Source: Dehalococcoidia bacterium (GTDB taxonomy: Bacteria > Chloroflexota > Dehalococcoidia > GIF9 > AB-539-J10). Taken from it: a stretch of DNA of 64,000 nucleotides. This document shows positions 9,457 to 41,770 of the stretch, piece by piece (position 1 is the stretch's first letter; the number at the start of each line of letters is the position of its first letter). The position numbers and the translations under genes were made by a program. Location of the stretch: the NCBI GenBank assembly GCA_030612025.1, contig JAUWOR010000006.1, positions 26,043 through 90,042 on the forward strand, given 5' to 3'. Under the pieces are notes generated by a model. It did no database searches. It was not told the DNA's origin and worked only from the letters and a program-made list of their open reading frames with translations.

Positions 9457-10491
9457 CTACTTAAAGCCAATCCCTTCTATCTCTATGAAATCGTCCTTAA
9501 TTCTTGTTTTGGCGCCCAGAAATTCCTCAATCAACCACAGGTTTGTCTCTACGTGTTCGGTAATTCTAGGAATCGAGTACCTGCTAGTTCCATCAGCCAA
9601 GCCAGCATAGATTATGAGCTGGTCTGCTATATACCTATCAACCGCGGCACCAGTTTTAACATCCTCTACAAAGCTTTGGGCTACATACCTCCCGATAGAC
9701 TCGGAGCTTCTTCCCGGCCTTCCTGCTCTATCCAAGCCAATTCTGCTACCTAAACTCGTCTTAGCATATATCGCCAGGGCAGCACCTTCCTGAAGCGAAC
9801 TCTCATCGTAAATTTCCTCGATTTCAGCCTTATAGCCATAAGAGCTTAATACCTTCTGGCATTCCTCTGCCATCCTGTGGCTCACTTCCCTTCCCTTCAA
9901 ATGAGAGGAGAGGGCGATTCCTTTGATATTGAGAATCCTGCCTTGCTCAGTAAGATTTAAAGGTTTTAATTTCTTTACCGGCTCAACTTCAATTTCTATA
10001 ATCCCGCCTCCTCGTGGCACGTAGCCAGGGCGAACTATCTCAAGCTCAGCCTGAATTCCCAGCTGTTCCAAAATTGGAAGCAAGACAAATTTCATATGAT
10101 AGGCAGAGGGGGCAAAATCCTGGAATATCCCGCCTTCGAGCCTGAATTTCGAGGGCTTTCCCGCAAAGCAGGCTAAAGGCAGAAGAGTTTGTGCCATCAT
10201 TGTGGTTGACCCTGCTGTCCCTATATCCCAGTGATACTCCCCTCCTTTAAACCTTCCCTTTGGAGCATAGGTAATCTCCTTAGAGCCCACCACGGCATTA
10301 CTCGCTGTGCCTTGGCACATCTCCTGACAAGCCTGGATAACCTTAAGGTGCTGCCTCCTTAGCCCTGGCCTATCCCTCTTCGCCCTGATATTTTGTATCT
10401 TTACCTCTTTCCCGAGCAGGCTAGCCAGAGCTACAGAATAGCGCACTATGGTTCCACTTCCAGACTTGGCGCCGCCATCTATAACCTTCAT
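9457..10491 (-). CDS. rtcA: RNA 3'-terminal phosphate cyclase
   Basis: 344 aa. The N-terminus (IDGGAKSGSGTIVRYSVALASLLGK) and overall length match RtcA. Confidence 0.85.
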   Translation of the reverse strand: MKVIDGGAKSGSGTIVRYSVALASLLGKEVKIQNIRAKRDRPGLRRQHLKVIQACQEMCQGTASNAVVGSKEITYAPKGRFKGGEYHWDIGTAGSTTMMAQTLLPLACFAGKPSKFRLEGGIFQDFAPSAYHMKFVLLPILEQLGIQAELEIVRPGYVPRGGGIIEIEVEPVKKLKPLNLTEQGRILNIKGIALSSHLKGREVSHRMAEECQKVLSSYGYKAEIEEIYDESSLQEGAALAIYAKTSLGSRIGLDRAGRPGRSSESIGRYVAQSFVEDVKTGAAVDRYIADQLIIYAGLADGTSRYSIPRITEHVETNLWLIEEFLGAKTRIKDDFIEIEGIGFK

Positions 10492-10544
10492 GTTGAGGCA
10501 ATACTATTTATATGCTGAGTAGGCAAAGTCAGTCAGTAGTCTCA

Positions 10545-10808
10545 TCATTTACGGTATGCTTCTCCACGATGACGGACATGATAAATGGTCACGACTTTCG
10601 TTTTGACGTCCACTTGGTAGATTACCCTGTAATCCCCAACTCGAATTCGATAATCTCGTTCTGAGCCTCGAAGTTTACGGCATTGTGATGGAAATAGATT
10701 TTCTACAAGGGACTCAACTGCTTGAATAATCCGAGGGATTTGCTGTGGATCAATATTCCGTAAGTCTCGCTCTGCTGACCCTTTCCATCGAATCTCATAA
10801 GAGGCCAT
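10545..10808 (-). CDS. RelE/ParE family type II toxin
   Basis: 87 aa. The RelE/ParE C-terminal signature is present (YRIRVGDYRVIYQVD...VVTIYHVRHRGEAY). It overlaps the upstream antitoxin gene. Confidence 0.8.
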   Translation of the reverse strand: MASYEIRWKGSAERDLRNIDPQQIPRIIQAVESLVENLFPSQCRKLRGSERDYRIRVGDYRVIYQVDVKTKVVTIYHVRHRGEAYRK

Positions 10809-10986
10809 CTTTTTCTAACTTCTTTTTGAGTTCTTCAAAAGTTATAGTAGGCTCATCTCTACGTTCAGCGATAATTGCAAGGTCATGAATATCTTCTAGA
10901 AGCTCTTCATATTCCTCAACCGGAATAATTACTGCTGTTTTTTGTCCTTTTTCATCTACAACATATTGCTCTTGAAATTTTGCCAT
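10795..10986 (-). CDS. Phd/YefM-type antitoxin
   Basis: 63 aa and acidic. Its 3' end overlaps the toxin gene start by 14 nt. A palindrome, AGTATATACT, lies about 40 nt upstream. Confidence 0.7.
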   Translation of the reverse strand: MAKFQEQYVVDEKGQKTAVIIPVEEYEELLEDIHDLAIIAERRDEPTITFEELKKKLEKDGLL

Positions 10987-11039
10987 GCTTGTCCTCCTGT
11001 TAGATTTTCAACAATTGAGTTCGTATAACTTAGTATATA

Positions 11040-11235
11040 CTATACGACTCAACTTCCATCACTGCTTGCTCAAAAGGGATAACTTCACCGCCGGAGACTT
11101 TGGCTGCGTCATAGGCACGAATAGAATCTAGCCCCTCAAGCTCCTGAGTAAATGATGGTAATCCTTCATATCAAGGACCACGCCAATACGATTGCCACTG
11201 TTATCCACTAAATATCGCTCTTTGATATTACTCAT
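11040..11235 (-). pseudogene. orphan, frameshifted antitoxin-like ORF
   Basis: Manual translation gives MSNIKERYLVDNSGNRIGVVLDMKDYHHLL...(frameshift)...QELEGLDSIRAYDAAKVSGGEVIPFEQAVMEVES. The antitoxin-like character of the protein is inferred. The reading frame breaks near position 11140, and no cognate toxin gene follows. Confidence 0.35.
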
Positions 11236-11258
11236 CCCTAGCTCCGTTTACATGGATT

Positions 11259-11447
11259 TTAGCACTGCTGATATTCAAATGCTAGCTGTAGGTTTATTTC
11301 CTTCGCGAGCAGGCTCGCCAGAACTACAGAATAGCGGACTATAGTTCCGCTTCCAGACTTTGCACTGCCATCTATGGTTATCATGTGCTGTTGTTTCTCC
11401 TCTTTGAAAAAGGCCTGTAACATTTTATATCTTTTGTTATACTCCAA
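11259..11447 (-). pseudogene. divergent 5' fragment of rtcA (partial duplicate)
   Basis: The ORF encodes ...MITIDGSAKSGSGTIVRYSVVLASLLAKEI, which matches the RtcA N-terminus. The stretch 11288-11390 is about 85-90% identical in nucleotide sequence to the 5' end of rtcA at 10400-10491. Confidence 0.7.
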
Positions 11448-11475
11448 AATACAATTTGCGCCTCTAAATGAGGGT

Positions 11476-11639
11476 GTTTAAAAATGTAGTTGCCCAATTT
11501 ATTGGGCGACTGTGCCTGATAAATCAGGCAACTACAAAAATTTAGGGTGAAACACCTCTGAGGTGGCTGAAATTGAACGGGAAATCAAAATTAAACAGCC
11601 TTTAAATAATTAGGAGGAAAATTTAAAAAGAGCCAAAAG
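11476..11639 (+). repeat. structured leader repeat, copy 1 (66-nt triple-hairpin core, then ~75-nt leader and RBS), upstream of the first PAC2 gene
   Basis: A near-identical inverted copy lies at 62756-62906. The core sequence is gtagttgcc-caatttattggg-cgactgtgcctgataaatcaggcaactac. It has two inner hairpins and one outer stem. Confidence 0.6.
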
Positions 11640-12554
11640 ATGGGAATAAGACTTTTTAAAGAGCCTGAGCTGGAAAAACCTGACCTGATTTGCGGCTGGC
11701 CAGGGATTGGGAATATTGGGCTAATTGCTGTTGATACCTTGAAGGGGGAGCTGGTAGCAGAAGAGTTTGGAGAAATAGAACCCTGGGACTTTTTCTACCC
11801 CAAGAAGGTCTCCGTCAGGGACGGTTTGCTCGAAAACTTAGAGTTCCCCACCAACAAATTTTATTATCAGCGGCTGAGAAGGAAAGATTTAATATTTTTC
11901 CTTGGAGAAGAACAGCCGACTGAGGGAGAGAGAGTGTACGCCACGGGAGAAAAGGCTTACCACATGGCCAATCTAGTTTTAGATGTAGCTGAAAAGTTTG
12001 GCTGCCAGAGAGTTTATACTTCAGGTGCCTGTGTTTCACCCATTCACCATACTGTGAAACCAAGAGTTATTTCAGTGGTAAGTTCTGAGAAGTTAGTAGA
12101 GGAGGTAATAAGGTACCAAAATACAATTTTAATAAGCGAAATGGGAGGAAGAGGTGAAGGGGTTATTACCGGATTAAACGGTCTTTTGCTGGCAGTGGCT
12201 AAAAAGAGGGGGTTAGAAAGTATTTGTTTAATGGGGGAGATACCAGATTGGCTTTCTGGTTCTCCCTTCCCCTATCCCAAGGCTTCAAAATCAGTGCTCG
12301 AGGTTTTTGCTGACATTCTCGGAATCAGAATTGATTTTATAGTTCTCGATAAGATGGTTGCCCAGATGGAAGAGGTTATTGAAAAGATCTATGAAGAATT
12401 CCCTTCAGAAATAAGGGAGCGATATGATGAAAGAAAGCTTATTGCCCAAGCTAAGCCAGGAGGGATAACTGAAGAGGATGCCAAATGGATTAAAGAGCAC
12501 ATTGATGAATTTTTTAAGAAAAGGGGGGAACAGGGTGGACAAAGCTCTGTTTGA
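11640..12554 (+). CDS. PAC2 (proteasome assembly chaperone-like) family protein
   Basis: 304 aa. The N-terminal motif LICGWPGIGNIGLIAVDTL is typical of the PAC2/DUF75 family. Confidence 0.65.
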   Translation: MGIRLFKEPELEKPDLICGWPGIGNIGLIAVDTLKGELVAEEFGEIEPWDFFYPKKVSVRDGLLENLEFPTNKFYYQRLRRKDLIFFLGEEQPTEGERVYATGEKAYHMANLVLDVAEKFGCQRVYTSGACVSPIHHTVKPRVISVVSSEKLVEEVIRYQNTILISEMGGRGEGVITGLNGLLLAVAKKRGLESICLMGEIPDWLSGSPFPYPKASKSVLEVFADILGIRIDFIVLDKMVAQMEEVIEKIYEEFPSEIRERYDERKLIAQAKPGGITEEDAKWIKEHIDEFFKKRGEQGGQSSV

Positions 12555-13353
12555 GCTCTATCAGTCTCCCCAGCTTCGCAACCCATCTTTGATTGTCGGT
12601 TGGCAGACCCACGATGTTGGGAAGTTGAGCTCTGAGGTTATCCATTTTTTGAATGAGAAACTGGAAGGTCAGCAAATTGCTGAAATCAAGCCCTCAGGCT
12701 TTTTCCCATTGGGAGGAGCAATATTTAAGGATAACTTGATCCAGGTTCCAGAAAGCAAATTCTGTGCTTGCCAGAAAAACGACCTCTTAATTTTTCAAAG
12801 CGAGGAGCCTAAATATGAATGGTATAAATTTTTGAATGCAGTTTTGGATTTTGCTCAACATTATTGTCATATCAAAGAGCTATATACCATCAGCGCGAGG
12901 CCCTCTCTTAGCGCCCATACTACTCCTCGGAGGATACTTACGGTTTACAATCAGCCAGAATTTCAAAAAACACTCCAAAGCTACGGACTAGAGGATATGA
13001 CCTGGGAAGGACCACCAGCCATAAGTAGTTACCTTCTGTGGGCAGCTGAAAGGAGAAGCATCCCCGGGATAAGCCTTTGGCCCGAGATACCATTTTACCT
13101 CGCTGCCGGAGAAGACCCCACAGCAATAAAGCTTACCCTTTCCTTTCTGGATAGCAGATTTAGCCTGGGGCTGGATTTGGGTGAGCTTGACTCGGATATC
13201 GGAAATCAGAATGAGAAAATAGCTCAGCTAAGAGAGGAAGATGCTGAAATCAATGAATATATCAACCGCCTGGAAAGTGGACTCAGCCTAAACGAAGAAG
13301 AGCAGGTAAGATTAGCCAGAGAAGTGTATGAACTTCTCGAGAAAAGAGGCTGA
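12478..13353 (+). CDS. PAC2 family protein, second tandem paralog. The start is uncertain and may be a downstream GTG or ATG.
   Basis: 291 aa with LIVGWQTHDVGKLSSEVIHFL, similar to the upstream paralog. The two ORFs overlap by 77 nt, so the true start is probably around 12505-12535. Confidence 0.6.
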   Translation: MPNGLKSTLMNFLRKGGNRVDKALFELYQSPQLRNPSLIVGWQTHDVGKLSSEVIHFLNEKLEGQQIAEIKPSGFFPLGGAIFKDNLIQVPESKFCACQKNDLLIFQSEEPKYEWYKFLNAVLDFAQHYCHIKELYTISARPSLSAHTTPRRILTVYNQPEFQKTLQSYGLEDMTWEGPPAISSYLLWAAERRSIPGISLWPEIPFYLAAGEDPTAIKLTLSFLDSRFSLGLDLGELDSDIGNQNEKIAQLREEDAEINEYINRLESGLSLNEEEQVRLAREVYELLEKRG

Positions 13354-13369
13354 ATTTGGTTGAGCCTCA

Positions 13370-13470
13370 AGGAAAAATCGCTCTCTTTCATCTACAACAT
13401 ACCACCTTGAAATTTTCTCATGCTTATTCCCCTGTTAGATTTTCACCAACCGATTTCGCATAACATTTTC
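13370..13470 (-). repeat. remnant of an antitoxin gene 5' end with its upstream region (a toxin-antitoxin cassette scar)
   Basis: The stretch 13379-13466 is about 85% identical to 10958-11030, which is the Phd antitoxin start and its upstream sequence. No intact toxin-antitoxin genes are adjacent. Confidence 0.4.
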
Positions 13471-13541
13471 GGCTTTCTGAAGTGCCAAGCATTTAGGCAA
13501 ACGAAGCGAGCCGCAAAGCCCGTGTTATGCGCAGTGCTGGC

Positions 13542-14150
13542 TTAGTTGGATGATTCATGTTCAAGATATGATTGGACTATGAGAGCGGCCTTAGATAGAT
13601 TCTCTGCGAAATGTCTAGGTTCAATTGGTAGTGTCCCCTCTTCTCTTCCTCCTTTACCAGTTTTGACCAAAATAGTCACACACCCCATGCTCTCGCCCGC
13701 TGCGATGTCAGAAGTTTTGTCGCCGATAAGAAAGCTTTTGGATAAATCAAGTTCGAAATCCTTAGCTGCTTCTAATAGCATTCCCGGCGAAGGCTTTGAG
13801 CACGGACAAGGGGAAACTGTTGGCGGCAGTTGGTTGGCTTCGAGATGCGGACAAAAGTAAAAAGCATCAATGTGTCCTCCGGCGTGCTCAACTCTGAATC
13901 GAAGCTGCGCATTGAATTGGGACATCTGCTCGCGTGTGAAAATGCCAAGTGCTATTCCTGCTTGGTTAGATAGAACGATAATATCGAGTGGGAGCGTCGC
14001 CAGAAGTCTCAGACCATCAATGGCCTTGGGAATAAACTCAAGCAACTGAACTTGGTGAGGAAAGTGCGAATCGACGTTGATGGTTCCGTCCCGGTCCAAG
14101 AACACCGCACGTCGATAATGTGCATTAGGCTTCGGGGGCCAATCTCTCAT
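13542..14150 (-). CDS. HAD-IIIA family phosphatase (GmhB-like D,D-heptose-1,7-bisphosphate phosphatase, or a histidinol-phosphatase-like enzyme)
   Basis: 202 aa. HAD motif I is present (AVFLDRDGTIN), as is motif III (LIGDKTSDIAAG). Confidence 0.7.
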   Translation of the reverse strand: MRDWPPKPNAHYRRAVFLDRDGTINVDSHFPHQVQLLEFIPKAIDGLRLLATLPLDIIVLSNQAGIALGIFTREQMSQFNAQLRFRVEHAGGHIDAFYFCPHLEANQLPPTVSPCPCSKPSPGMLLEAAKDFELDLSKSFLIGDKTSDIAAGESMGCVTILVKTGKGGREEGTLPIEPRHFAENLSKAALIVQSYLEHESSN

Positions 14151-14676
14151 GTGTCTTACTTCCTCCTTTTCTATGAAAGACTACAGTTATCACTATAGCT
14201 GCCAAGCCATAGGCTGCTGTAGCAACACTTAGAACTGTGCATCCGGCTTGCTCGATCTCTGTTAACCAAAGATACAGAAGTGATAGAGCACATACCGCCC
14301 ACAGCGCCACCAGGAAGAACCCCCGTCGAATTCCAGGCACCTCTTGAGTCTTATAGTACGTTTCCCATTCTTTCTCGGGAGGAGTTCCGCACAGACGAGC
14401 CAGTTCGGGTTCGATCTCCTCGCGAAGGTATTTTGCCAGAACCTCATGGACCCGATAGCTGTACAGAATTAGAACCGTGAAGTAGATAGAAACCAGTGGC
14501 GCAGCGATAAGAACCATACGAAGGCCAGTCGTAGAGAAAGAAATAGCTACTAAGACACCCAAAGCAATAGTTAGTTGGATTGAATATTTATCCCGTTGCT
14601 CGATCCGTCTTTTGGTCTCGTCCCGTATATCCTGTCGTAACGTTTCAAAATGAGCTATTGCCTTCTCTTCAGTCAT
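14125..14676 (-). CDS. hypothetical membrane protein
   Basis: 183 aa with about four predicted transmembrane segments. It overlaps the downstream HAD phosphatase start by 26 nt. Confidence 0.5.
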   Translation of the reverse strand: MTEEKAIAHFETLRQDIRDETKRRIEQRDKYSIQLTIALGVLVAISFSTTGLRMVLIAAPLVSIYFTVLILYSYRVHEVLAKYLREEIEPELARLCGTPPEKEWETYYKTQEVPGIRRGFFLVALWAVCALSLLYLWLTEIEQAGCTVLSVATAAYGLAAIVITVVFHRKGGSKTHERLAPEA

Positions 14677-14972
14677 TGAGGAATTCCTCGCGTTAGGCTA
14701 GCGCTCTAGCATCTGGCCAGCATTGCATATAACTCGTGCATAACCGCACTGCGTTTATTTTTCATTTAGCTCCATCCTATCCAATGGATTTTGGGGCCCC
14801 CGCACCATCTTATTGGAAACATAGGTCATCTTCCCTGCTTCTTTTTTAAGATGATCATTTTGCACAATTAGTATATACGAAATTCTCTTTTTGTTCAGTA
14901 GCTTATTGCACAGGTATTGGATGCCCTCACTATTTCCATTAAGCACTACAAAAAGTTACCTGCTAATTCCAG

Positions 14973-17900
14973 CTATCTTGAAATCTCGATGGTCTCTTTT
15001 TCAATATTCGCATAGAGGCTGTCTATCTTCTGTTGAACTTCCATTGTCTTTTTCAAAGCAGTTACAACCCGGCAGTAATGTTTTACATCCTCAAGAGATA
15101 CCTCCCGTCCTCTTCTATCCTTAAGCCACTTATCCAAGACCTGGTAACCACCAATTTGGTATTCCCAGACCTCTTTTTCTATTCCCTCAAAGTATTGATC
15201 ATTGTTGATGTAAACCCGCATTTCCTTTTCGCTATATCTTGGCCTCTCAACTTTATTATCACCACTGCCCTCAAATTTGGCAATTGGGTTATTTAGCTCC
15301 GCCGACTTTATCAGATGTAAATCAGCAAGCTTGCTGCCACATTTGCCTATCCTGTTAAACAATTCATGGTCTTTAGTAAAAGGCACTCTGGGGAAATCAA
15401 TTTTCAAAAATTCAGCGTATTTGCTGCGATAGATGTTGGAATAAAGAATGCTATATATGTAATAGAATATTTCCTCTGGAGTTGGTTCTTTGCCATAAGC
15501 CTCAGCTAAAGATTCGACCAGCTTGAGATTAAGGTTTGGCTTTCTTCTCCGAGCTTCCTCTTGGTTGAACATATCTCCTTTGCCTAGATAGAGGTAGAGG
15601 GGAAAGAGATAGCTAATTTCTCTCGTTTTGTTAGAAACAACGCAAGATTCGACAATATTTTCGCAAATAAAAGCATGGTGAAATCCTAGCGTATTTTGTC
15701 GGCAGGTCAATAACCCCAAGTTCTCCCTCATCATGTGGTGCATGACTTCTAAAAGGGGTCTTTCGACAACTATATTTGTATAGTAGATATTTCTCTTATC
15801 AAAAGGACGATATGAAATCTGAGTAAAGTATTTGTCCCAATTCTTATCTTTAGAAAGGGTCTCTCGCGATTTCCTAAACTTAAATGTGCTTGTATCCTTT
15901 AATTTGAAAGCCTGTTTAATAAGTTCATCCGGCATTGATAGATTTCTAAACATCACAATCTGCCTTTTTAAGACATCCCTATCAAAATCAATTACAAACT
16001 TGTCTCGTGCAGTAACAATGCCTACACAATTTATTGGGAAAACATCGGTTATCTTCCAGAATTTTTCGTAAACATTTCTGTAGGTTTCCGCTCTTGGGAC
16101 AAAGAAATAATATGGGCTATCTGGTTTTAGTTGTTGCCACTCGATTGTGTTCACATCATTCCCCAGAAGCCAATCATATTTATCTTTCTGCAAGCCCCAG
16201 AGTTCAGAATGGAAAACTTTCTTCTCTAAGCCCTTTCTTTTAATGAACAGTGAAATGGCAACTCCTTGTTGGATATCAAAAACATTTTCATCCTTAGAGC
16301 CATCAGGACATCTTTCCCTTTTTAGGCTGTTGCCGTGCAAATCCAATAGATAGAGCTCGTTAAAGCTATTCATCAAAGATTGACGCATTCCCCTAAAGGT
16401 CGGGCTATCCAGATAGCTATGATTGGTAATGAATCCCAAAACGCCTTCACCTGCTTGGTCTATCTTCCACTGGGCAAAGCGAATGAATTTAACATAGTCA
16501 TCTTGAAGCCACTGTTTTCTCTCACCTAACCACTGGCCATCTATTACCTTATAGTGTTCTATTAGTTCGCCAATCCAGGTTTTCTGCTTTATTTTCATTT
16601 TTCTTCTTGCCTCTTTTGTTTGAGGAATCAATTTATAACAGCCATTTAATTTATCCTCTTGAATCTGGTAATTAGTTACATATCTGTTCCCCTTCTCAAC
16701 AGTTACTTTCCTCTCGCTTAAATTTGCTGATATTCCCGAATATGGAGGATTCCCCAGAATAACTAGGATGGGCTCTTCCTTCTTTACCTTGCCAGCGAGA
16801 TGTGATTCCTCAGCCAGGGAAGCCATCCCTGGAAGAACAGTTTGCTCCAGTTCTTCCATTTCCAAAGTATTGGTAAGATAGAACTTGAAGCGCTCATCCT
16901 CACGGAGCTTATAGCCCAATTCTTCTAATAGCAGTGCCACCTTCAAATGTCCTAAGGCATAGGGAGCCATCATTAGCTCGAAGGCGTAAAAGTTCTTCAA
17001 GATATGCTCTTTGATAAAGCTCTCCTTTCCTCCCTTCCCATATTTGGCGATAAATTGCTCTAATGCCAATTTGCTTGCCTCAGCAGGGAAGGTCAGAGTG
17101 CCAGCGGCTGGGTCTAAAACAGTGACGGAATTGGAGGCAAATCCATCTGGTCTGTCAAAGCGCTCTTTGAGGATGATATCTAAGGAACGAACGATATAAG
17201 AAACTACTGATTCAGGAGTGTAATAAACGCCCCTTCTTTCCCTTTCCTCAGGATTATACTTAGCTAGAAAAGTCTCGTAGGAATAGTAAACAGGGTCTCT
17301 TCCTTTTGCTTCATGATAAAACTTGTCTAGAATCTCATTGACATCAGCCACTGCCAGAACCTGGGAAATCTCATCCACAATCCATTCCATTTGCTTGGGT
17401 AATTCTTCTAGGGAAATGAAGCTAAAAACATCTCGCAGGATACCAATAGTTCGGGGGATGTAGTCATAAGCTAGCTTGCGGTTAAAGCCATTTTTACAGC
17501 GAGTGCGGGCAGCAAAAAGCCCATAAGTGATAGTCTGAGCATATAAATCGGCAAAACCATCTTGGGTCAGCCCGGCAATGAGATATTTCTGAAATGCTTC
17601 ATAAAATCCAAGAACGGAGCTTCTCTCTTCTTTCAATTCTTCCACAATGACTTGTTCTTTTAAGAAGCTAGTCCTTTTTGCCAGTTCGACGGCTAAAGAC
17701 TCTGCTGTATAGGCCTTAGGGAGTGAGAAGGAGAGGAACTTATTTAGCAGATTGAGAAAACCATCCCTGTTCTCTACAGGAGGTACTGTTTTCAATTGAT
17801 GAATGATAAAGGGTCTAGCCAGCAAGGCTTTATCAACTAGCCTTCCATTGCGATACAGGCGAAATTCAAAGAAGTTGGTTAAGATGAGATTGGGAAATGT

Positions 17901-18188
17901 ATGTCTATAGCGCTTTAGCTGTTCACCGTTCTCAATGTAGTCAAGATTTTCTGTGAGAGGCTCTTTTGCCTCAATATAACCAACAATGTTTTGCCTCCCA
18001 TCCCAAACCCTGAAATCAGGGTTGCCTGCCTCAGTCTTCTTGGGCAAGGTGGTGATATGAATATGCTTTTTGTTAATAGAATCAGCAAGGGCCCTTAGGA
18101 GCTCCTCTAAACTTGAGTAATAGCTTTCCTCCCGAGCATCGCCAGTCTGGGTAACCTCATATAATCTCTTAAGGTATGTCTTTAGCAT
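14973..18188 (-). CDS. single-polypeptide restriction-modification enzyme, MmeI-like type IIL/IIG, with fused N-terminal PD-ExK endonuclease, N6-adenine methyltransferase and target-recognition domain
   Basis: 1071 aa. The N-terminus carries PDFRV...GYIEAKEP, a D-x(n)-EAK nuclease motif. Methyltransferase motif I (VLDPAAGTLTF) and motif IV (LGNPPYSG, NPPY, gamma-class) are present. The large C-terminal region fits a specificity domain. Confidence 0.75.
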   Translation of the reverse strand: MLKTYLKRLYEVTQTGDAREESYYSSLEELLRALADSINKKHIHITTLPKKTEAGNPDFRVWDGRQNIVGYIEAKEPLTENLDYIENGEQLKRYRHTFPNLILTNFFEFRLYRNGRLVDKALLARPFIIHQLKTVPPVENRDGFLNLLNKFLSFSLPKAYTAESLAVELAKRTSFLKEQVIVEELKEERSSVLGFYEAFQKYLIAGLTQDGFADLYAQTITYGLFAARTRCKNGFNRKLAYDYIPRTIGILRDVFSFISLEELPKQMEWIVDEISQVLAVADVNEILDKFYHEAKGRDPVYYSYETFLAKYNPEERERRGVYYTPESVVSYIVRSLDIILKERFDRPDGFASNSVTVLDPAAGTLTFPAEASKLALEQFIAKYGKGGKESFIKEHILKNFYAFELMMAPYALGHLKVALLLEELGYKLREDERFKFYLTNTLEMEELEQTVLPGMASLAEESHLAGKVKKEEPILVILGNPPYSGISANLSERKVTVEKGNRYVTNYQIQEDKLNGCYKLIPQTKEARRKMKIKQKTWIGELIEHYKVIDGQWLGERKQWLQDDYVKFIRFAQWKIDQAGEGVLGFITNHSYLDSPTFRGMRQSLMNSFNELYLLDLHGNSLKRERCPDGSKDENVFDIQQGVAISLFIKRKGLEKKVFHSELWGLQKDKYDWLLGNDVNTIEWQQLKPDSPYYFFVPRAETYRNVYEKFWKITDVFPINCVGIVTARDKFVIDFDRDVLKRQIVMFRNLSMPDELIKQAFKLKDTSTFKFRKSRETLSKDKNWDKYFTQISYRPFDKRNIYYTNIVVERPLLEVMHHMMRENLGLLTCRQNTLGFHHAFICENIVESCVVSNKTREISYLFPLYLYLGKGDMFNQEEARRRKPNLNLKLVESLAEAYGKEPTPEEIFYYIYSILYSNIYRSKYAEFLKIDFPRVPFTKDHELFNRIGKCGSKLADLHLIKSAELNNPIAKFEGSGDNKVERPRYSEKEMRVYINNDQYFEGIEKEVWEYQIGGYQVLDKWLKDRRGREVSLEDVKHYCRVVTALKKTMEVQQKIDSLYANIEKETIEISR

Positions 18189-18262
18189 TTTCTGACACTC
18201 GAACTCCGACCTTATTCATATTATAATACTTAAAGCTGAAAAAAGCATAAGCAGCTTGAGAC

Positions 18263-18469
18263 ATGTCTAGCTCAGGACAGAGAACCGGGATTGCCAATTT
18301 GCCACTTCACTATGGCAAAGTGCCTCCGTGGCTGTTTGGGCGGATGTGCCAGCTTGCTCGGGAGATAGCCATTGTCATTGTTGATGAATTTGGAGCTGAG
18401 GAGATGCTCCGCCGCTTCTTGAACTGTTTTCATCAGCCACCTCCTTTGTTGTCCTCAATAACATTATAG
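18263..18469 (+). pseudogene. divergent 5' fragment of the DUF763 gene
   Basis: MSSSGQRTGIANLPLHYGKVPPWLFGRMCQLAREIAIVIVDEFGAEEMLRR matches the N-terminus of the intact gene at 19426. Nucleotide identity is about 90% over 160 nt, and the sequences diverge after that. Confidence 0.7.
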
Positions 18470-18594
18470 GATGATAGTCAGCGCAATTTGAGTTTTCGCC
18501 AAATGTTCCCGGTGTAAAAGGAGTTCTGCGTAACCAGAATTTCGACGGGGTGAGGCGTAGTCTTTTATACCATGTTATACAAAAAGTGAGAGCA

Positions 18595-18936
18595 TCATTC
18601 TGCTTCTTCCAAAATTCGCAAAACTTTCGGTTTCAGCTCCGGTAAATCCCTTTCCACAACTGCCCAGACCCGCTCCAGATTTACACCAAAATATCCATGA
18701 ATGAGAACATCCCTCATTCCTGCAATCTGCTTCCAAGGGATATTGGGATACTTACTCTTAAAATCCTCGGGTATGTTCTTTACAGCTTCTCCTACAATTT
18801 CCAACCTTCGAATTATAGCATCTTGAGTCCGAATATCCTCCATAAAGTGTGCTTTGCTCATACCTTGAGAGTATTCCTCTATCCTGTCAGCGCTTTCCTT
18901 AATATCTTCGAGGAAAACCCTTATTTCTTTCTTCAT
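18595..18936 (-). CDS. HepT-like (DUF86, HEPN) toxin of a HepT/MNT toxin-antitoxin pair
   Basis: 113 aa. The HEPN motif R-x4-HGY is present in GMRDVLIHGYF. It is coupled to the MNT gene by an ATGA overlap. Confidence 0.8.
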   Translation of the reverse strand: MKKEIRVFLEDIKESADRIEEYSQGMSKAHFMEDIRTQDAIIRRLEIVGEAVKNIPEDFKSKYPNIPWKQIAGMRDVLIHGYFGVNLERVWAVVERDLPELKPKVLRILEEAE

Positions 18937-19220
18937 ACCACCGACACCTGTTCATTGAGAATCCGTTCTTTCAATAAAGGATGAATTGTAGAATATTCAA
19001 CAAGATCAACTTTTCTTCCTAACGCTTCCTCAAGTTCCAACTTCAATGCTACAAGATCGAGCAAACTTTTCTCTTCGGGCAATTCTACAAGGATATCAAT
19101 GTCGCTCCCTTCTTTCATCTCCCCCTTCACAAGGGATCCAAATACTGCAGCTTGCACAACGCCATGACCCGTCAATATAGGAACTATTTTGCTTCTAACT
19201 TCCTCAATGTATTTCTCCAT
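18933..19220 (-). CDS. MNT-type nucleotidyltransferase antitoxin
   Basis: 95 aa. The nucleotidyltransferase motif is present (AAVFGSLVKGE...GSDIDILVEL, i.e. GS...DxD). Confidence 0.8.
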   Translation of the reverse strand: MEKYIEEVRSKIVPILTGHGVVQAAVFGSLVKGEMKEGSDIDILVELPEEKSLLDLVALKLELEEALGRKVDLVEYSTIHPLLKERILNEQVSVV

Positions 19221-19425
19221 AATTGATCACCATTTCCATCTGATGCCGTCATTTCATATAACTTTAGTATATACGAAATTCGCTTTTTATTCAGTAGGTT
19301 ATCAGCATATACATATACTTGGGTAGCTGCTCCCTTTCAAAGCCAGCCGCACCTCTGGCAACTTTTCGTCATGCGGCAAATATCGGTCAAGGTAACGCTG
19401 TTGTATAATATCTGTAGAAAAGGAT

Positions 19426-20514
19426 ATGTCCACCTCAACACAAAGAACCGGGATTGCTAATTTGCCTTTGCACTATGGCAAGGTGCCTCCGTGGCTTTTT
19501 GGGCGGATGTCTCAGCTTGCTCGGGAGATTGCCATTGTCATTATTGATGAATTTGGAGCTGAGGAGATGCTCCGCCGCCTTTCTGACCCTTTCTGGTTTC
19601 AAGCTTTTGGCTGTGTCCTGGGCTACGACTGGCATTCCAGCGGCGTTACTACCACTGTTTGCGGGGCTCTGAAAGAAGGGATGCGAGGCTTAGAAAAAGA
19701 ACTTGGCCTGTTCGTTGCCGGCGGCAAGGGCAGGACTTCACGAAAAACCCCAGCGGAGATAGAAAGCTTTGGGCATCTGCTAAAAGTAAATCCATCGCCT
19801 CTAATCTATGCCAGTCGGATGTCAGCCAAGGTAGATAACTCAGCCCTTCAAGACGGCTATCAGCTCTATCACCATACTTTCTTCTTTACCAGAGACGGCT
19901 CCTGGGCAGTAATTCAGCAGGGCATGAATGAGATTAACCGCTATGCGCGGCGTTATCACTGGCTAGGAGAAAAAGTCGTTGATTTTGTTTGTGAGCCTGA
20001 GGCAGCTATTTGCTCCCAAGCTAGAGGCGAAGCACTAAACTTGGTAGCATCAGAGAGCACACAAGCGCGAAACGTCATCACCGATATTGCTGCTGAGGAA
20101 AAGCCGGAGAATATCGTAACCCAATTGAAGAAGCTAAAAACCTTGACTCTGCCCCGGCGATCTTACATCAGCCTCGAAGACATTCATCCCGACCGACTGA
20201 GCAAGCTCTTCACCATCGCTTATGAGCATCAACCAGAAAACTTTGAGTCACTGCTGGGGCTTGAAGGTATAGGACCAAAGACGCTTCGCGCTTTGAGTCT
20301 TATCTCAGAATTGGTTTACGATACACCGGTTAGCCTGCATGACCCGGCAAGCTACAGTTTTGCCCATGGTGGCAAGGATGGTCATCCCTATCCTGTGGAT
20401 AGGAAGACTTATGATGCTAGCATCGAATTTCTGGCTCAGGCGGTAGATAAAGCCAAGATTGGCGATAAAGAGAAGCTTGATGCCTTCAGACGCCTAAAAG
20501 TTTGGACTGTATAA
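19426..20514 (+). CDS. DUF763-family protein, conserved hypothetical and archaeal-like
   Basis: 362 aa. Partial, divergent copies of its 5' end (18263-18469) and 3' end (22407-22510) flank two inserted cassettes. Confidence 0.7.
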   Translation: MSTSTQRTGIANLPLHYGKVPPWLFGRMSQLAREIAIVIIDEFGAEEMLRRLSDPFWFQAFGCVLGYDWHSSGVTTTVCGALKEGMRGLEKELGLFVAGGKGRTSRKTPAEIESFGHLLKVNPSPLIYASRMSAKVDNSALQDGYQLYHHTFFFTRDGSWAVIQQGMNEINRYARRYHWLGEKVVDFVCEPEAAICSQARGEALNLVASESTQARNVITDIAAEEKPENIVTQLKKLKTLTLPRRSYISLEDIHPDRLSKLFTIAYEHQPENFESLLGLEGIGPKTLRALSLISELVYDTPVSLHDPASYSFAHGGKDGHPYPVDRKTYDASIEFLAQAVDKAKIGDKEKLDAFRRLKVWTV

Positions 20515-20540
20515 CTAATAGTGATAACTAAGGTACAGGC

Positions 20541-20963
20541 TTAAAAGTTTAATGATTGACGAATAGTTGCTAAATCTCTTTGGAAAAAGCCTTTTACGTC
20601 ACTATTACTAAAATATTCCTGAACTGGCTTTTCAAGAAATTCTCTTTCTGCGGGGAAGTGAAGATACCTAGCAATTCTGCTTTGCTCATAAAGTTTCCTA
20701 AACGATTGCCACACCTTAAATGAGTAGTTTTCTAAAATCATCTCGGTTCTGTAGTCATGATAGCTTCCTTTGTAATTACGAGGTTTGCTTATTTCGGTAT
20801 GCACGATTTTGGGATTCTGAAAGAAGGCAGCTTCAACATAATGGATAGCAGCGTAAAAGGTTGCAGTTATAATCCAATCCTTATATTCCAAGCTGGCTAA
20901 TAGTTGCCGGGCTAGACTTTCATTATGTCGTGCTTGTCGCAAATGAGCTTGTAGAGATGCCAT
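20541..20963 (-). CDS. hypothetical protein, gene 3 of the uncharacterised cassette
   Basis: 140 aa with no recognisable motifs. It lies last in a co-directional three-gene string. Confidence 0.5.
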   Translation of the reverse strand: MASLQAHLRQARHNESLARQLLASLEYKDWIITATFYAAIHYVEAAFFQNPKIVHTEISKPRNYKGSYHDYRTEMILENYSFKVWQSFRKLYEQSRIARYLHFPAEREFLEKPVQEYFSNSDVKGFFQRDLATIRQSLNF

Positions 20964-21567
20964 CTAGACTTCTTGACCAAATCAGTTTCACATCTGGATT
21001 GAATATCTGAGCTAAAGACTCAAACTCAGTGAGCCTGGGGATATATTCAAAGGAAAGAGGAACATCCTTAAATTGCAATCGAACATTTCTCTCACTGATG
21101 AGAAGCCGATTCATTAATTCGTCGTCATACTTTTCATTCGTTGTTAGTATAAGGAACCTTTTTCTCTGCAGGTATTCATCGGAATAAATCGAAAACACCT
21201 GCTCTATTCCTTCAAAAATGCCTATAACCTTCCGTTCTATGCGAAATTCACTACTCTCCTCCTCAGCTTTCGTTGAGAACTCAACCCATCTAATAAGTGT
21301 ACCAGAGTTCAGAGAAAAGACCTCTTCCCACATAGCCTCCAAGGTGGTTACAAGCTGGCGATCTAATAAATCGATAGCTTTAGAACACTGCTTAACTTTC
21401 TCAACCCCGAGATATTGTGTAACCTCTTTGCCAGCAGTAACTTCTTTAAAGGCATTCAGCAAAATCTCAGAAAACATCTTAAAGGTTGTATTCTCCACAT
21501 CTTCTCGCCTTAGCCTCCATGGTGTATAAGGCTGGGTAACAGTGGATATAGAAGCAAGAGCACACAT
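20923..21567 (-). CDS. hypothetical protein, gene 2 of the cassette. The probable start is MCALAS at 21567.
   Basis: An ATG at 21565-21567 is preceded by GAGGAGGA, which lies within the last codons (FTEED*) of the upstream gene. The start was reassigned from the ORF-track position of 21633. Confidence 0.5.
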   Translation of the reverse strand: MCALASISTVTQPYTPWRLRREDVENTTFKMFSEILLNAFKEVTAGKEVTQYLGVEKVKQCSKAIDLLDRQLVTTLEAMWEEVFSLNSGTLIRWVEFSTKAEEESSEFRIERKVIGIFEGIEQVFSIYSDEYLQRKRFLILTTNEKYDDELMNRLLISERNVRLQFKDVPLSFEYIPRLTEFESLAQIFNPDVKLIWSRSLDGISTSSFATSTT

Positions 21568-21569
21568 AC

Positions 21570-22277
21570 TTAATCCTCCTCTGTAAACAAAGACTTTAAA
21601 TCGCTTTCCACAAAAGTGAAAACTTGGGAACAAAAAGCTGGAATCTGTTCTGCACTAAAATCATATTTCATCTCTGAGACTGTATTTATATCTGTCTCAA
21701 TGAGCAAAGCATTAGCTTCTTCTAAGGTTTCTTTACCCTCAGGGCTAAGGCATCTAAATCTGTGCCATCTGTTTACCTTAAATTCTCCTAGAGCAAACTT
21801 GTGCAAAAAGTTCAGATTAAGTTCGCGCGGATCGACAATCGTTCCTGACTTCAAGAACTTTTTCATTAAGAAATCCACGGGGGACTCTTCTGGAAACACA
21901 GCTGAGTTTACAACAATCCCCATGCGCTCAACTTTCACTCTAAGTTCTGTTTTTACAGCCCTAGCAATGTTGGCAAGCTGAGTCAAAAAATCATCTTGCA
22001 CCTCTTCAAGCTTTTTATTTTCACCTTTCTTCTGTCTTAAAAAAAACTCAAGTCTTTTAGGGCTTATGTGGCAATGAAACATCTTATTCTTATCCCCAAG
22101 GATAATGCGCGGAATTTCAACGGGAGCATCATCAGGTATCGGTAAAATAGTCTGTTCACCACTAAACAAGTTTTTTGTAGCTTTGTTTAGATTTTGAGCA
22201 ACTTCTATTCTGTCAGACAGAGCTATATCGCTGAAAAGAACTACTAAAATTCTTCGGATAAAAATTTCCATTGCCAC
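21570..22277 (-). CDS. hypothetical protein, gene 1 of the cassette
   Basis: 235 aa with no recognisable motifs. Its stop codon abuts the RBS and start of gene 2. Confidence 0.5.
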   Translation of the reverse strand: MAMEIFIRRILVVLFSDIALSDRIEVAQNLNKATKNLFSGEQTILPIPDDAPVEIPRIILGDKNKMFHCHISPKRLEFFLRQKKGENKKLEEVQDDFLTQLANIARAVKTELRVKVERMGIVVNSAVFPEESPVDFLMKKFLKSGTIVDPRELNLNFLHKFALGEFKVNRWHRFRCLSPEGKETLEEANALLIETDINTVSEMKYDFSAEQIPAFCSQVFTFVESDLKSLFTEED

Positions 22278-22406
22278 CTCTCTTATATTAGATTCAAACC
22301 CCGGCGAAAAGTATCAAACGCCTCATCAATATACGCCAAAAAACACTTCTTGACAATAGGGGGGACTTTGCACAATCCCGGTAGAACTTTCTTAAACAAT
22401 CTGGCC

Positions 22407-22510
22407 TTATACGATGCTAGCATTGAATTTCTGGCTCTGGCAGTGGACAAAGCCAAAATTGGCGATAAAGAGAAGCTTGATGCCTTCAGAAGATTAAAGG
22501 CTTGGCGGTA
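22407..22510 (+). pseudogene. divergent 3' fragment of the DUF763 gene
   Basis: About 88% nucleotide identity to 20405-20514. It encodes ...DASIEFLALAVDKAKIGDKEKLDAFRRLKAWR*. Confidence 0.65.
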
Positions 22511-22534
22511 AAGGAGGTTTTAGGGTGAGTTTTT

Positions 22535-22588
22535 CACCCTCACCTTAATCCTCTCCCGTCAAGGGAGAGGAAATTTGGCTCGCAATGA
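22535..22588 (+). repeat. REP-like hairpin element, copy A (caccctcaccttaatcctctccc-N-caagggagaggaaat)
   Basis: Further copies lie at 56274-56316 and 58304-58357, all in the same orientation. A degenerate relative is at 24464-24495. Confidence 0.7.
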
Positions 22589-22638
22589 CATAGTGAAGTT
22601 ATTGTTACAAGGCTCTATAATATAGGGTAAGCAGTAAA

Positions 22639-23979
22639 ATGACCCATTTTGATATCGCATCTTATGTGTCCCACATCGAGGCTAATAGGTCAGTCAAGGA
22701 TGCCCTGATGCAAAAGTTAAAGACTCGCCGGCCTCCATACCATATTTCAGTAACTGACCTGACTAACCTGAAGCAGGCTTACTTTAAGAGAAAATACCCG
22801 GAAATCGTTCCACCTCTGGAAAAACAACAGCTTCTGTGGGCTGGCACCGGGTTTCACAAGATCTTTGGTTCGGCTGTTTCCAGCGAAGAATATCTGGAGC
22901 AGTTTGTCGAAGCTGAGGGCATCGTAGGCAAAATTGATATCTATGAAAATATACCCATAGAGGTGAAAACAACCTCAACCCTGGTAAGCACGGGAGACTT
23001 GGCTAAATATAGGCCGACTTATGTGGAACAACTGGGCATATACTGTGCTATGGTCAACTCCCTCCAGGGGAAAATCATTATTTACCAGCGCCACGATTCT
23101 ACAGAATCACCCCAAGCTCCGCTTATTGCCTACCAGGTTACTTTTCCCGATCTGGAAGCAATCCGAGAGGAAATGCGGCAAAGGCGAGATCTCTTGGTAC
23201 AAGCACTCATCTCAAATGACCCCAGTAATCTGCCTATCTGTGCTTGGTTTAATAGGGGATGTGATTATTCAGAAGTATGTGACTGCAGGACTACTTCGGT
23301 GCCGCTATCATACACGATTGCTGAACTAGCAGGGCAAATCCAAATTGACGAGCCCACTTGCCAACAACTCCTTGATAAGCTTGCCAAGCCACAGCCATCT
23401 CGACTATTTCGAACCAACGACCTCGTCTTCCCCCGTAAGGCATACTTTAAGCGTGCCAAGCCGCAAGAAATCGCCATTGACCAAGGGTTGCCGCAAGAAA
23501 AAGAAGAGCATCTTCGTTCCATGGATGAACTAGGCTTTCTCGATGCGCTTCGTGATGCGTTACGCTACGGCGCTCCAGGCGAAGTGGAAAGGATTCCCAT
23601 ACAACATAGACTATTGGCTGACCTGGTCCAAGTCTGTCAGAACTTGCCCACCATCTTGCGCGACCCAAAGTTCTATTCCCTGGTGGAAAGGGAACGCTTG
23701 CCCTGGACATTCCCTCATTATTTCCTCCGCCTGGGATTCGAGTGCGCCCTAACAGACCATCCCCAGGGCAGGCTACTGCTTTATTACGCTAACGTTCCTA
23801 GAGAAGATGCTAAACTAATGGTCTATGATGCGACCTTTAGAAATTTGCATGCCCTCAAGACGGAGGCATTACGCCGCGTTGAGCTTTTGCAAAAAGCAAC
23901 GTCTCCACTTCAGCTTCCAAAATGTCCCTCATGGATGTGTCCTAACTGTAGCTATAAGTTTGAATGTGGTGAAGCATGA
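22639..23979 (+). CDS. Cas4/RecB-like PD-(D/E)XK nuclease domain protein with two cysteine clusters (putative Fe-S centres)
   Basis: 446 aa. The nuclease motifs are GKIDIYENIPIEVKTT (D...ExK) and YVEQLGIY (QxxxY). The first Cys cluster is CAWFNRGCDYSEVCDC. The C-terminal Cys cluster is CPSWMCPNCSYKFEC (C-x4-C-x2-C-x5-C). Confidence 0.55.
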   Translation: MTHFDIASYVSHIEANRSVKDALMQKLKTRRPPYHISVTDLTNLKQAYFKRKYPEIVPPLEKQQLLWAGTGFHKIFGSAVSSEEYLEQFVEAEGIVGKIDIYENIPIEVKTTSTLVSTGDLAKYRPTYVEQLGIYCAMVNSLQGKIIIYQRHDSTESPQAPLIAYQVTFPDLEAIREEMRQRRDLLVQALISNDPSNLPICAWFNRGCDYSEVCDCRTTSVPLSYTIAELAGQIQIDEPTCQQLLDKLAKPQPSRLFRTNDLVFPRKAYFKRAKPQEIAIDQGLPQEKEEHLRSMDELGFLDALRDALRYGAPGEVERIPIQHRLLADLVQVCQNLPTILRDPKFYSLVERERLPWTFPHYFLRLGFECALTDHPQGRLLLYYANVPREDAKLMVYDATFRNLHALKTEALRRVELLQKATSPLQLPKCPSWMCPNCSYKFECGEA

Positions 23980-24467
23980 ACTGGCTGGATATAGTTATCA
24001 TAATAGTTACTCTCTTACTCGGCATGCTGGGATTATGGAGAGGAGCTATCAAGGCTGTATTTGGTATCGTCGGGTTAATAGGAGGTATAGCTCTAGCAGG
24101 GCATTACTACCTGCCACTTGCCAGCATACTCTCCTCCGGTGAAGCTATTTGGTCGAGGATAGCTGCCTACGCTATTATCCTGGTGGCCACTTTGATTGTA
24201 GCTAGCGTAATCGGCTGGTTTGTAGCTCGCTTGGTTCACATCGTGATGCTCGGCTGGGTAGATAGGCTTATTGGTTTCATCCTTGGAGCCGCCATAGGTA
24301 GCATGCTATGCGCCGCTGTCCTTGCCATTGTAAGCAAGTATTTATCAGTCATGGGGGGAGTTATCTCTCAGTCTGTAATGGCAAAACTCTTGATGGAGCA
24401 ATTTCCTTTGTTATTAGCGCTCCTCCCCGAGGAATTTGACTTCATTGCTGACTTCTTTTCACTCTAA
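23976..24467 (+). CDS. cvpA: CvpA-family membrane protein
   Basis: 163 aa with four transmembrane segments and CvpA-like topology. It overlaps the nuclease gene stop by 4 nt (ATGA). Confidence 0.65.
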   Translation: MNWLDIVIIIVTLLLGMLGLWRGAIKAVFGIVGLIGGIALAGHYYLPLASILSSGEAIWSRIAAYAIILVATLIVASVIGWFVARLVHIVMLGWVDRLIGFILGAAIGSMLCAAVLAIVSKYLSVMGGVISQSVMAKLLMEQFPLLLALLPEEFDFIADFFSL

Positions 24468-39806: not shown

Positions 39807-40280
39807 ATGATAGAAGAAATCGGCATTCACACTGAGCAGAAATTCAAAGGTTGTGTTGATGAGGAGTGGGTCAGAAAAATAGCTCATGAGGTTCTCGAGG
39901 CTGAAGGCGTAGTTCCCCCTTACGAAGTGAGCCTGGTTTTCACCGATTCTGAGACGGTGCAAAAACTCAATCGAGACTACCGAGGCGTGGATGAGCCCAC
40001 AGATGTGCTTGCCTTCAATATGCTTCCTCAAAAAGAAACCTCTCCCCCTTTTGTTCTGCCTCCCGATGGCGTAGCTCGCCTGGGCGAGGTAATCATTTCC
40101 TATCCCCAAGCAGTGGAGCAAGCCAAGGAACAAGGGCATTCCGTTAATAAAGAGCTAGCACTGCTAATTATTCATGGCATACTTCATCTCTTAGGCTATG
40201 ACCATGAGCAACCAGAGGAAGAAGCCAAAATGAGAGCCAGGGAAAAGGAGCTTTTAGCCAGGGCTACCTCCGGGAGATAG
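39807..40280 (+). CDS. ybeY: rRNA maturation RNase YbeY
   Basis: 157 aa. The metal-binding motif HGILHLLGYDH is present. Confidence 0.85.
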   Translation: MIEEIGIHTEQKFKGCVDEEWVRKIAHEVLEAEGVVPPYEVSLVFTDSETVQKLNRDYRGVDEPTDVLAFNMLPQKETSPPFVLPPDGVARLGEVIISYPQAVEQAKEQGHSVNKELALLIIHGILHLLGYDHEQPEEEAKMRAREKELLARATSGR

Positions 40281-41603: not shown

Positions 41604-41770
41604 TTTTCCCCTGGAAAACAAACTAGGCACGCACGTTGAAGGCAGACAATGGCGCCCACAATTGGGGGGTGGATTGCTCTGTTAATTTATCAAAGAAACT
41701 TTCAATATATCCATTCTCCTGGGGACTGTCAGGATTAATAAGCGGAGTCTGGCTGCCTAGAGCTTCCTAG

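Follow-up and report, generated by a model that had tools for sequence, protein, structure and literature searches.

We analysed a 64-kb stretch of a Dehalococcoidia contig, referred to below as the window, and examined in depth its region from 10.5 to 22.5 kb. Here two conserved genes, rtcA and the gene for a DUF763 protein (DUF763 in the following), stand next to partial copies of their own ends, with small cassettes of toxin-antitoxin (TA) or accessory genes in between. Our data indicate that these cassettes probably entered at the conserved gene ends by homology-anchored, integrase-independent displacement of the gene end. The evidence comes from the divergence of the partial copies, from the flanks and mosaic structure of the intact genes and from the recurrence of the architecture in related genomes.

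Genes and cassettes were compared with Pfam, PADLOC, NCBIfam and Rfam, and repeats were identified by self-BLAST and repeat finding. For comparison, 80 loci were recovered with the DUF763 protein of the window, all from metagenome-assembled genomes (MAGs) of Dehalococcoidia or Chloroflexota; comparators are given L numbers, and every comparison sequence is a MAG or a metagenome contig. L002 is the closest relative of the window among the diverged loci, while L161 represents a 99.87% identical strain. As proxies we used L005, L014 and L006 for the donor and L004 and L002 for the recipient, all of them approximate stand-ins.

The partial gene copies diverged as functional alleles

Self-BLAST and repeat finding recover all three pairs of intact gene and partial copy that a preliminary description of the window had reported. 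The DUF763 5' fragment (18260-18415) is 89.7% identical over 156 nt to the intact gene (19423-19578; E=2e-54), the DUF763 3' fragment (22410-22505 versus 20410-20505) 87.5% over 96 nt (E=2e-27) and the rtcA 5' fragment (11287-11375 versus 10394-10482) 84% over 89 nt (E=8e-21). In codon register the rtcA pair has 20 differences in 99 nt, i.e. 80% identity; the copies as measured are thus 80-90% identical and not 85-90% as first estimated. The coordinates originally given for two of the fragments, 11259-11447 and 18263-18469, are those of the enclosing open reading frames (ORFs), and homology is confined to 11286-11384, 18263-18418 and, for the third fragment, 22410-22510. As repeats around the cassettes, the copies are in direct orientation and 96-156 nt long.

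The window evidently stems from metagenome assembly of a strain-diverse population, a source in which strain variants might be joined artificially. However, such an artefact is practically inconceivable as an explanation, and so is the chance similarity that the preliminary description had named as an outcome that would overturn it. The E-values range from 8e-21 to 2e-54, the fragments are in frame, and the 68-aa ORF of the DUF763 fragment matches Pfam DUF763 (E=5e-14). Independent assemblies from other samples, made with other assemblers (L162-L166), are 100% identical to the window over every junction, with that of the DUF763 3' fragment reproduced in L162-L164, demonstrating that the structure is not produced by assembly. 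The rtcA junction is moreover found in the diverged locus L002 and the DUF763 5' junction in L081.

Differences between the copies are mostly synonymous, with pN/pS (nonsynonymous over synonymous differences) of 0.31, 0.22 and 0.13 for the individual pairs and 0.21 for the pooled data (P=2.6e-8 versus neutral decay). Divergence thus took place between working genes of different lineages. Orthologs from other lineages are 84-89% identical to the copies, compared to 80-90% between the copies themselves. In the rtcA pair, identical runs do not exceed 13 nt, and the longest one is internal. The last 35 nt of the DUF763 5' fragment are identical to the intact copy.

Intact genes have cassette-linked flanks and imported tracts

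Pfam matches across the region comprise RtcA, ParE, RelB-like, two PAC2 genes, a HAD phosphatase, a Type ISP/IIG restriction-modification (RM) gene, HepT, MNT, DUF763, PD-(D/E)XK and CvpA. The features on which the following analysis relies are listed here (RBS, ribosome-binding site).

9457-10491, minus strand: intact rtcA (Pfam RTC), a mosaic; the first ~200 nt (~10292-10491) were imported with the cassette, the remainder is L004/L002-like
10492-10986, minus strand: ParE-RelB cassette and 53-nt spacer, with ParE at 10545-10808 and the RelB-like antitoxin at 10795-10986 (Pfam)
11033-11235 (about), minus strand: orphan RelB-like antitoxin pseudogene, frameshifted (from translations and the intact L015 ortholog)
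11286-11384, minus strand: displaced rtcA 5' fragment of 33 codons; homology ends at about nt 93-99
11385-11462, minus strand: native rtcA promoter and RBS upstream of the rtcA fragment, aligning with the empty-site loci L004/L017
13383-13464, minus strand: remnant of a RelB 5' end and its upstream region, located after PAC2b; 82% identical to 10947-11029
14973-18188, minus strand: Type ISP/IIG RM gene (Pfam; PADLOC REase_MTase_IIG, E=1e-268), a variable fill of the hotspot
18189-18418, plus strand: L002/L003-type upstream region (18189-18262) and DUF763 5' fragment (18263-18418) of 52 codons
18419-19425, minus strand: imported block of spacer, HepT (18595-18936), MNT (18933-19220) and L014-type DUF763 promoter region (TGTTGTATAAT)
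19426-20514, plus strand: intact DUF763 (Pfam), a mosaic with an L014-like tract to about nt 215 and L002-like sequence beyond
20541-22277, minus strand: three-gene cassette (140, 236 and 235 aa), the same as in L006
22410-22510, plus strand: DUF763 3' fragment of 33 codons and stop, followed by a REP-like double hairpin (22529-22587)

At the rtcA edge it is the fragment that adjoins the promoter and RBS preceding rtcA in the empty-site loci L004 and L017. The intact gene is preceded by the 3' end of ParE and the 53-nt spacer, which align with the L005 sequence; there rtcA is the immediate neighbour of the same TA pair. This cassette is 87% identical (nt) to its L005 counterpart, compared to 68-81% for the host genes there. 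The intact gene itself is a mosaic. Within nt 1-200 the informative sites divide into 18 of donor type (D) and 18 of recipient type (R), versus D28/R165 in nt 201-1000 (Fisher, P=9e-6); past nt 200 we find 27 consecutive recipient-type sites, and the switch is also visible in sliding-window identity.

At the 5' edge of DUF763, the fragment adjoins upstream sequence of the L002/L003 type, and the intact gene has the L014/L004-type 'TGTTGTATAAT' promoter region. Informative sites in nt 101-215 are D10/R1, versus D33/R116 in the remainder of the gene (Fisher, P=7e-6). The MNT/HepT block is shared with L081, which is 97% identical to the window over 1043 nt and has the spacer in 100% identical form. 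On the 3' side, the last ~15 nt of intact DUF763 and the sequence downstream are linked to L006 and the cassette; in L006 the same three genes lie between DUF763 and PD-(D/E)XK with 71-80% aa and 81% nt identity. Synonymous bias, native versus cassette-linked flanks and foreign 5' tracts thus bear out the earlier proposal that the fragments, rather than being simple target-site duplications, are left over from recombination with a divergent, cassette-carrying allele.

A related possibility is insertion in situ with a long target duplication, in which ~100-150 nt of recipient sequence are duplicated and the copies diverge later through decay of the fragment, allelic replacement or both. Long direct repeats flanking the cassettes, present in single copy in empty-site genomes and unaccompanied by mobility genes, are indeed the criterion of Furuta et al. 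2010 for this mode, and near-identical pairs exist in L048, L067 and L003. The copies in the window, however, are no closer to each other than to orthologs of other lineages, in contrast to the Helicobacter pylori examples, in which the two repeats resemble each other more than they resemble the target. Neither the synonymous bias, nor the linkage of the intact copies to donor-type flanks, nor imported tracts that reach beyond the repeat are in agreement with duplication, which would need later allelic replacement at all three sites as an extra step. We therefore regard it as unlikely.

One hypervariable region between conserved anchors

The gene order rtcA(-) ... DUF763(+) - PD-(D/E)XK(+) - CvpA(+) is conserved over the 80 loci. 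rtcA and DUF763 are divergently transcribed and lie 54 nt apart in L030 and 126 nt apart in L019. Since they are neighbours in the simplest relatives, the two loci of the preliminary description, which do share the layout attributed to them, are not independent but form the two edges of one hypervariable gap, together with the adjacent gap. Across the 80 loci the first of the three anchor gaps measures 54-7764 nt, or 296-7764 nt in loci with full-length anchors; the second measures 17-1936 nt and the third -1 to 4226 nt. The first two gaps are filled most extensively in the window (8934 and 2124 nt).

Alignment across related genomes, the check that had been suggested for this region, reveals the same anchors with different cassettes: the 105 gap ORFs include DNA methylases, HicAB, ABC-2 transporters, PAC2 pairs and assorted enzymes. 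The genes thus act as anchor points for cassette swapping, as had been proposed from the window, and variable content between constant flanking genes is what characterizes a minimal mobile element or hotspot. Empty sites are found in L002, L001, L003 and L004, which have a single DUF763 copy and no cassette there, and in L004 and L017, which have no TA pair at rtcA. L002 combines the rtcA fragment and TA pair with two empty DUF763 sites, while L005 and L006 carry the same cassettes without fragments ("clean" sites).

No integrase or transposase is encoded in the 64-kb window, where every ORF outside the region with a length of 120-170 aa or more is a housekeeping gene (PurF/M/H, RpoB/C, MutS, RuvB, PdxS and others), and the window has no tRNA or tmRNA genes. 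Among the top 25 of the 58 cargo families formed by the gap ORFs there is no recombinase family. Rfam gives no match at gathering threshold over the whole window, showing that the junction-adjacent repeats are not known RNAs. An integron cassette array was rejected on the lack of an integrase and of an Rfam match and because the cassette borders are gene fragments rather than attC-like hairpins.

Several breakpoints and older remnants at rtcA

The 5' end of rtcA has been broken at no fewer than three positions, namely about nt 57 (PAC2 pair; L004, L017), nt 74 (ABC transporter; L015) and nt 93-99 (orphan antitoxin), and L015 holds an array with three rtcA 5' copies. The junction at nt 93-99 to the orphan antitoxin is common to the window, L002, L012 and L015, with either RelB-ParE or HicAB between this junction and rtcA, depending on the genome. 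The orphan antitoxin pseudogene noted earlier proves to be a frameshifted RelB-like gene with an intact ortholog in L015 (Pfam RelB-like). It is what remains of an older TA pair, from which sequential displacement removed the toxin and kept the antitoxin. Recent horizontal transfer of this junction was rejected: the window and L015 are only 72.5% identical here, similar to host divergence, which indicates that the junction is old. The RelB remnant at 13383-13464 is also present in L002, and the same spot after PAC2b in L004/L017 holds an rtcA 5' fragment cut at about nt 57. This implies that the PAC2 pair, too, arrived through an event of this kind.

A scan of 10.4-11.7 kb for promoters and terminators gave four promoter-like sites, all on the plus strand, versus 2.8 expected, and no predicted terminator. 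Between the native rtcA promoter and PAC2a lies a 156-nt structured repeat (11463-11617), of which an inverted copy with 85% identity is located at 62763-62918. It forms a long perfect hairpin (minimum free energy z-score about -7 on both strands) and has no Rfam match. As the repeat is missing from the homologous spacer of L002, it resembles an insertion of the kind of a miniature inverted-repeat transposable element.

Genes and fragments continue to recombine

In L002, the intact rtcA holds a tract identical to the rtcA fragment of the window. L081 has the HepT-spacer-fragment junction exactly as in the window, but its fragment is frameshifted and decayed whereas that of the window is intact. 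A DUF763 5' remnant follows HepT in L081, L082 and L083 alike, with a different RM system upstream in each. In the L161 strain (ERZ4220366 NODE_17), 10 of 11 single-nucleotide polymorphisms (SNPs) over 8.4 kb cluster within -13 to +18 of intact DUF763 (window 19413-19443, 31 nt). The five SNPs inside the gene all match the fragment; the five upstream do not, pointing to a third allele or to two separate events. Taken together, the shared tracts, the refreshed and decayed fragments and the SNP cluster demonstrate that gene and fragment are both live substrates of recombination. Mosaic tracts and patch recombination in the anchors and a cassette more similar than the host genes may reflect exchange by homologous recombination in the flanks.

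The architecture recurs with other cargo and at other gene ends

Further cassettes are found at gene ends in the related loci. At rtcA, HicAB occurs on the 5' side in L012 and L015 and on the 3' side in L053. The crotonase 3' end has a ParE-type pair in L005 and the PAC2b 3' end a 4-kb metabolic insert in L003. At DUF763, L054 has a TM2 protein and L067 a DUF5667 protein at the 3' end, and L048 has a 506-aa secreted protein at the 5' end. Six gene ends are thus used: rtcA 5' and 3', DUF763 5' and 3', PAC2b 3' and crotonase 3'.

A small survey beyond the clade covered 54 unrelated metagenomic MNT/HepT pairs with adequate flanks. Six of these (11%) are tightly bracketed by direct repeats of 43-235 nt, compared to 0.3% of random same-size segments of the same loci (P=1e-8). 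The repeats around these pairs (L131, 3965-5217; L110; L119; L154; L085; L104) are diverged. In L131 and L110 one repeat copy is the 3' end of the upstream gene; in L131 this is a 1388-aa gene, whose 231-nt fragment has a pN/pS of 0.14 (P=5e-9).

The same architecture surrounds elements that integrate site-specifically and restore their target, so that an integrase acting in trans on att sites within gene ends could be considered, with the elements supplying a surrogate end as in dusA- or icd-type integration and with accretion like that of cis-mobilizable elements (CIMEs). The fragments would then correspond to attL and attR, the tandem array of L015 resembles accretion, and the DUF763 5' breakpoint coincides exactly with an identical run of 35 nt. 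This identity is, however, explained by gene conversion, since L081 lacks it behind the same junction. Moreover, neither the window nor the common cargo contains an integrase, at least three breakpoints at the rtcA 5' end alone and the use of six different gene ends do not fit fixed sites, there is no shared core motif, and the imported tracts are longer than the fragments. Site-specific integration is therefore very unlikely.

Proposed mechanism of end displacement

The cassettes, be they TA pairs, RM genes or accessory genes, would arrive on DNA from another lineage in which they already neighbour the anchor gene. At one end, this DNA would recombine homologously within the anchor gene; at the other, it would be joined to the resident gene within the ~50-160 nt at its start or end, or a short way beyond them, either illegitimately (homology-facilitated illegitimate recombination, HFIR) or with the fragment of the donor as a second homology arm. 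This would yield, in order, the displaced resident gene end, the cassette and an imported gene end fused to the resident gene body, leaving the anchor intact. Later imports beside the anchor would push out earlier cargo, which may explain the orphan antitoxin and the fragment arrays, and gene conversion and allelic replacement would keep acting on gene and fragment afterwards. The two repeats would allow precise deletion of the insert; because they make such loss easy, addictive cargo (TA, RM) may be preferentially retained. Selection would also explain why only anchor-restoring events are seen. The molecular route (HFIR or a double crossover with overlapping arms), the delivery of DNA and the contribution of addiction to retention are inferred, whereas the data demonstrate the architecture and how it recurs, the origin of the copies as functional alleles, the imported tracts, the variability of the breakpoints, the lack of a recombinase in the window and continuing patch recombination.

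The imported tracts reach ~nt 200 in rtcA and ~nt 215 in DUF763, while the fragments end at nt ~93-99 and 156. As the tracts exceed the fragments, the data fit a two-crossover replacement and not a single crossover in an arm or att core. This bears on a Campbell-type single crossover of a circle carrying one gene-end arm and the cassette, formed by recombination between fragment and gene in the donor. Such a route yields the same layout with RecA only, flanking repeats can excise circles of this kind, and copy-to-copy recombination is evident. Yet it predicts donor sequence confined to the arm, at odds with tracts that extend to ~nt 200 and 215 from arms of 99 and 156 nt, and no circular junction is observable in the available data. 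We reject it as the main route on the length of the imported tracts and consider it quite improbable.

A more far-reaching version of end displacement, which we put forward tentatively, is that the fragment is a working part of an integrase-free mobile unit consisting of fragment, addiction cassette and gene end. In such a unit the two flanks would overlap, both being parts of a single conserved gene. As linear DNA, the unit could enter any genome having that gene, whatever its neighbours, by a RecA-dependent double crossover and would thereby recreate the layout, while TA or RM cargo would penalize its precise repeat-mediated deletion.

Several points weigh against end displacement. The donor and recipient proxies are imperfect and drawn from MAGs or metagenome contigs throughout. 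At the DUF763 3' end the polarity is ambiguous, the fragment being L001/L003-like and the intact end L002-like, with too few informative sites when L006 or L001 is set against L002 as a proxy. Gene 5' ends may be general hotspots of recombination or variability, in which case the imported tracts would be overestimated. True duplication in situ could account for the near-identical pairs in L048 (100% over 92 nt), L067 (97% over 142 nt) and L003 (96% over 469 nt). Rare recombinases could be present beyond the top 25 of the 58 cargo families, or a recombinase could be encoded elsewhere in the genome. Finally, the account presupposes natural competence or another route of DNA delivery in these Dehalococcoidia.

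Further features of the DUF763 neighbourhood

The three-gene cassette (20541-22277) has no match in Pfam, PADLOC or NCBIfam. Lookup by exact protein sequence succeeded for its 140-aa product but gave nothing for the 235-aa ORF, probably owing to a different called start codon; by eye only, its 140-aa protein has an R-x5-H motif reminiscent of HEPN nucleases. The Type ISP/IIG gene is 80% identical (nt) to that of L002, compared to 91-95% for the neighbouring genes, a lower value that suggests allelic turnover of the RM gene itself; at the equivalent position, L081 and L082 have different RM systems. A 39-nt motif (TTAGTATATACGAAATTC...) is present at 14868-14906 and 19264-19302, and many relatives have it ~100-160 nt upstream of DUF763. 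In both the window and L002 a further copy is located immediately downstream of the Type ISP gene, indicating that the RM gene was inserted between motif and DUF763.

The REP-like double hairpin (core CCTCTCCC-N4/5-GGGAGAGG) occurs at 22529-22587, 56269-56319 and 58297-58355, i.e. in three copies versus none expected. In the DUF763/PD-(D/E)XK spacer of relatives it is 93-99% conserved next to flanking genes of far greater divergence, and L005, L010 and L048 have it at other positions as well. Throughout the clade, DUF763 is followed by a 446-aa PD-(D/E)XK protein with weak Cas4-like matches and a C-terminal Cys cluster and then by CvpA (19426-24467); DUF763 and the nuclease may be functionally linked. 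On the scale of the window, the cumulative GC skew has its minimum near 41 kb (~40000-42600), and genes lie on the minus strand at 24-40 kb and on the plus strand at 42.6-55 kb. Skew minimum and orientation switch would fit an origin or terminus of replication at a distance of ~20 kb from the hotspot; a dnaA gene was not noticed.

Implications and relation to known systems

The mobility of type II TA pairs is notorious, but for most copies in chromosomes no vehicle can be recognized. Homology-anchored displacement of conserved gene ends would be such a vehicle, and one that leaves a datable, stackable record in the form of fragments and orphan antitoxins. Integrase-free spread of addiction cassettes has previously been noted mainly for RM and polymorphic-toxin loci, and a literature search of limited reach, in which absence is not proof, found no TA-specific description of this insertion mode. 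If general, the mechanism would be shared by TA, RM and polymorphic-toxin loci, and a gene-end repeat with low pN/pS would be a simple signature of recent cassette gain. Should the mobile-unit version hold, it would amount to a general, so far unnamed form of TA and RM mobility and would account for the scattered occurrence of these genes on chromosomes with no need of transposases or integrases. The plasticity of Dehalococcoidia genomes has mostly been discussed in terms of site-specific islands; the present locus documents how defence and TA islands are built in this group.

Integrases acting at gene ends (dusA-associated integrases, e14 in icd, CIME accretion at fda) provide elements that restore the target gene with the displaced end at the far border, and tandem accretion is possible. 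Such systems need a tyrosine recombinase and a fixed core; here, in contrast, no recombinase is found in the window, several variable breakpoints are used and the inserts are only 0.6-4 kb long.

The minimal mobile elements of Neisseria, as summarized in PMC3787668 (citing Saunders & Snyder 2002; Snyder et al. 2007), are different cassettes between the same flanking genes, exchanged by homologous recombination of the flanks without mobility genes. The present locus is similar in that relatives have different cargo between the same conserved flanking genes. The classical Neisseria elements are, however, clean swaps with both flanks homologous and no partial copies, whereas here the events are one-sided and the fragments then become extra anchors.

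RM units are known to insert with long target duplication, lacking mobility genes and flanked by variable repeats of 30-420 bp that often overlap gene ends (Nobusato et al. 2000; Furuta, Abe & Kobayashi 2010, PMC2853133). These repeats align to one copy in the empty-site genome, and the mechanism was left unexplained (PMC2853133); a 2013 review credits this mode to RM only. As here, the cassette lies between direct repeats of >30 bp without mobility genes, with a single copy in insert-free relatives. The repeats of RM units are twin copies of the recipient target, in contrast to the diverged functional alleles of the window, of which the gene-proximal one is donor-linked, and their cargo is RM, compared to mainly type II TA pairs in our case.

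A parallel in terms of displaced ends is provided by the effector-immunity arrays of Rhs, contact-dependent inhibition (CDI) and type VI secretion system (T6SS) loci, in which an incoming module replaces the gene end and the displaced end is pushed outward together with an orphan immunity gene (Jackson et al. 2009; Kirchberger et al. 2017, PMC5361080). Successive events build arrays there, and HFIR without involvement of an integrase has been proposed (PMC5361080). The retention of the displaced end beside the gene, the orphan antitoxin and the array of L015 are all consistent with this model. In contrast to those loci, where the anchor is a toxin gene whose toxic tip is exchanged, the anchors here are the housekeeping or conserved genes for RtcA and DUF763, which simply retain their function; 5' ends serve as well as 3' ends, and the exchanged ends encode the same conserved sequence.

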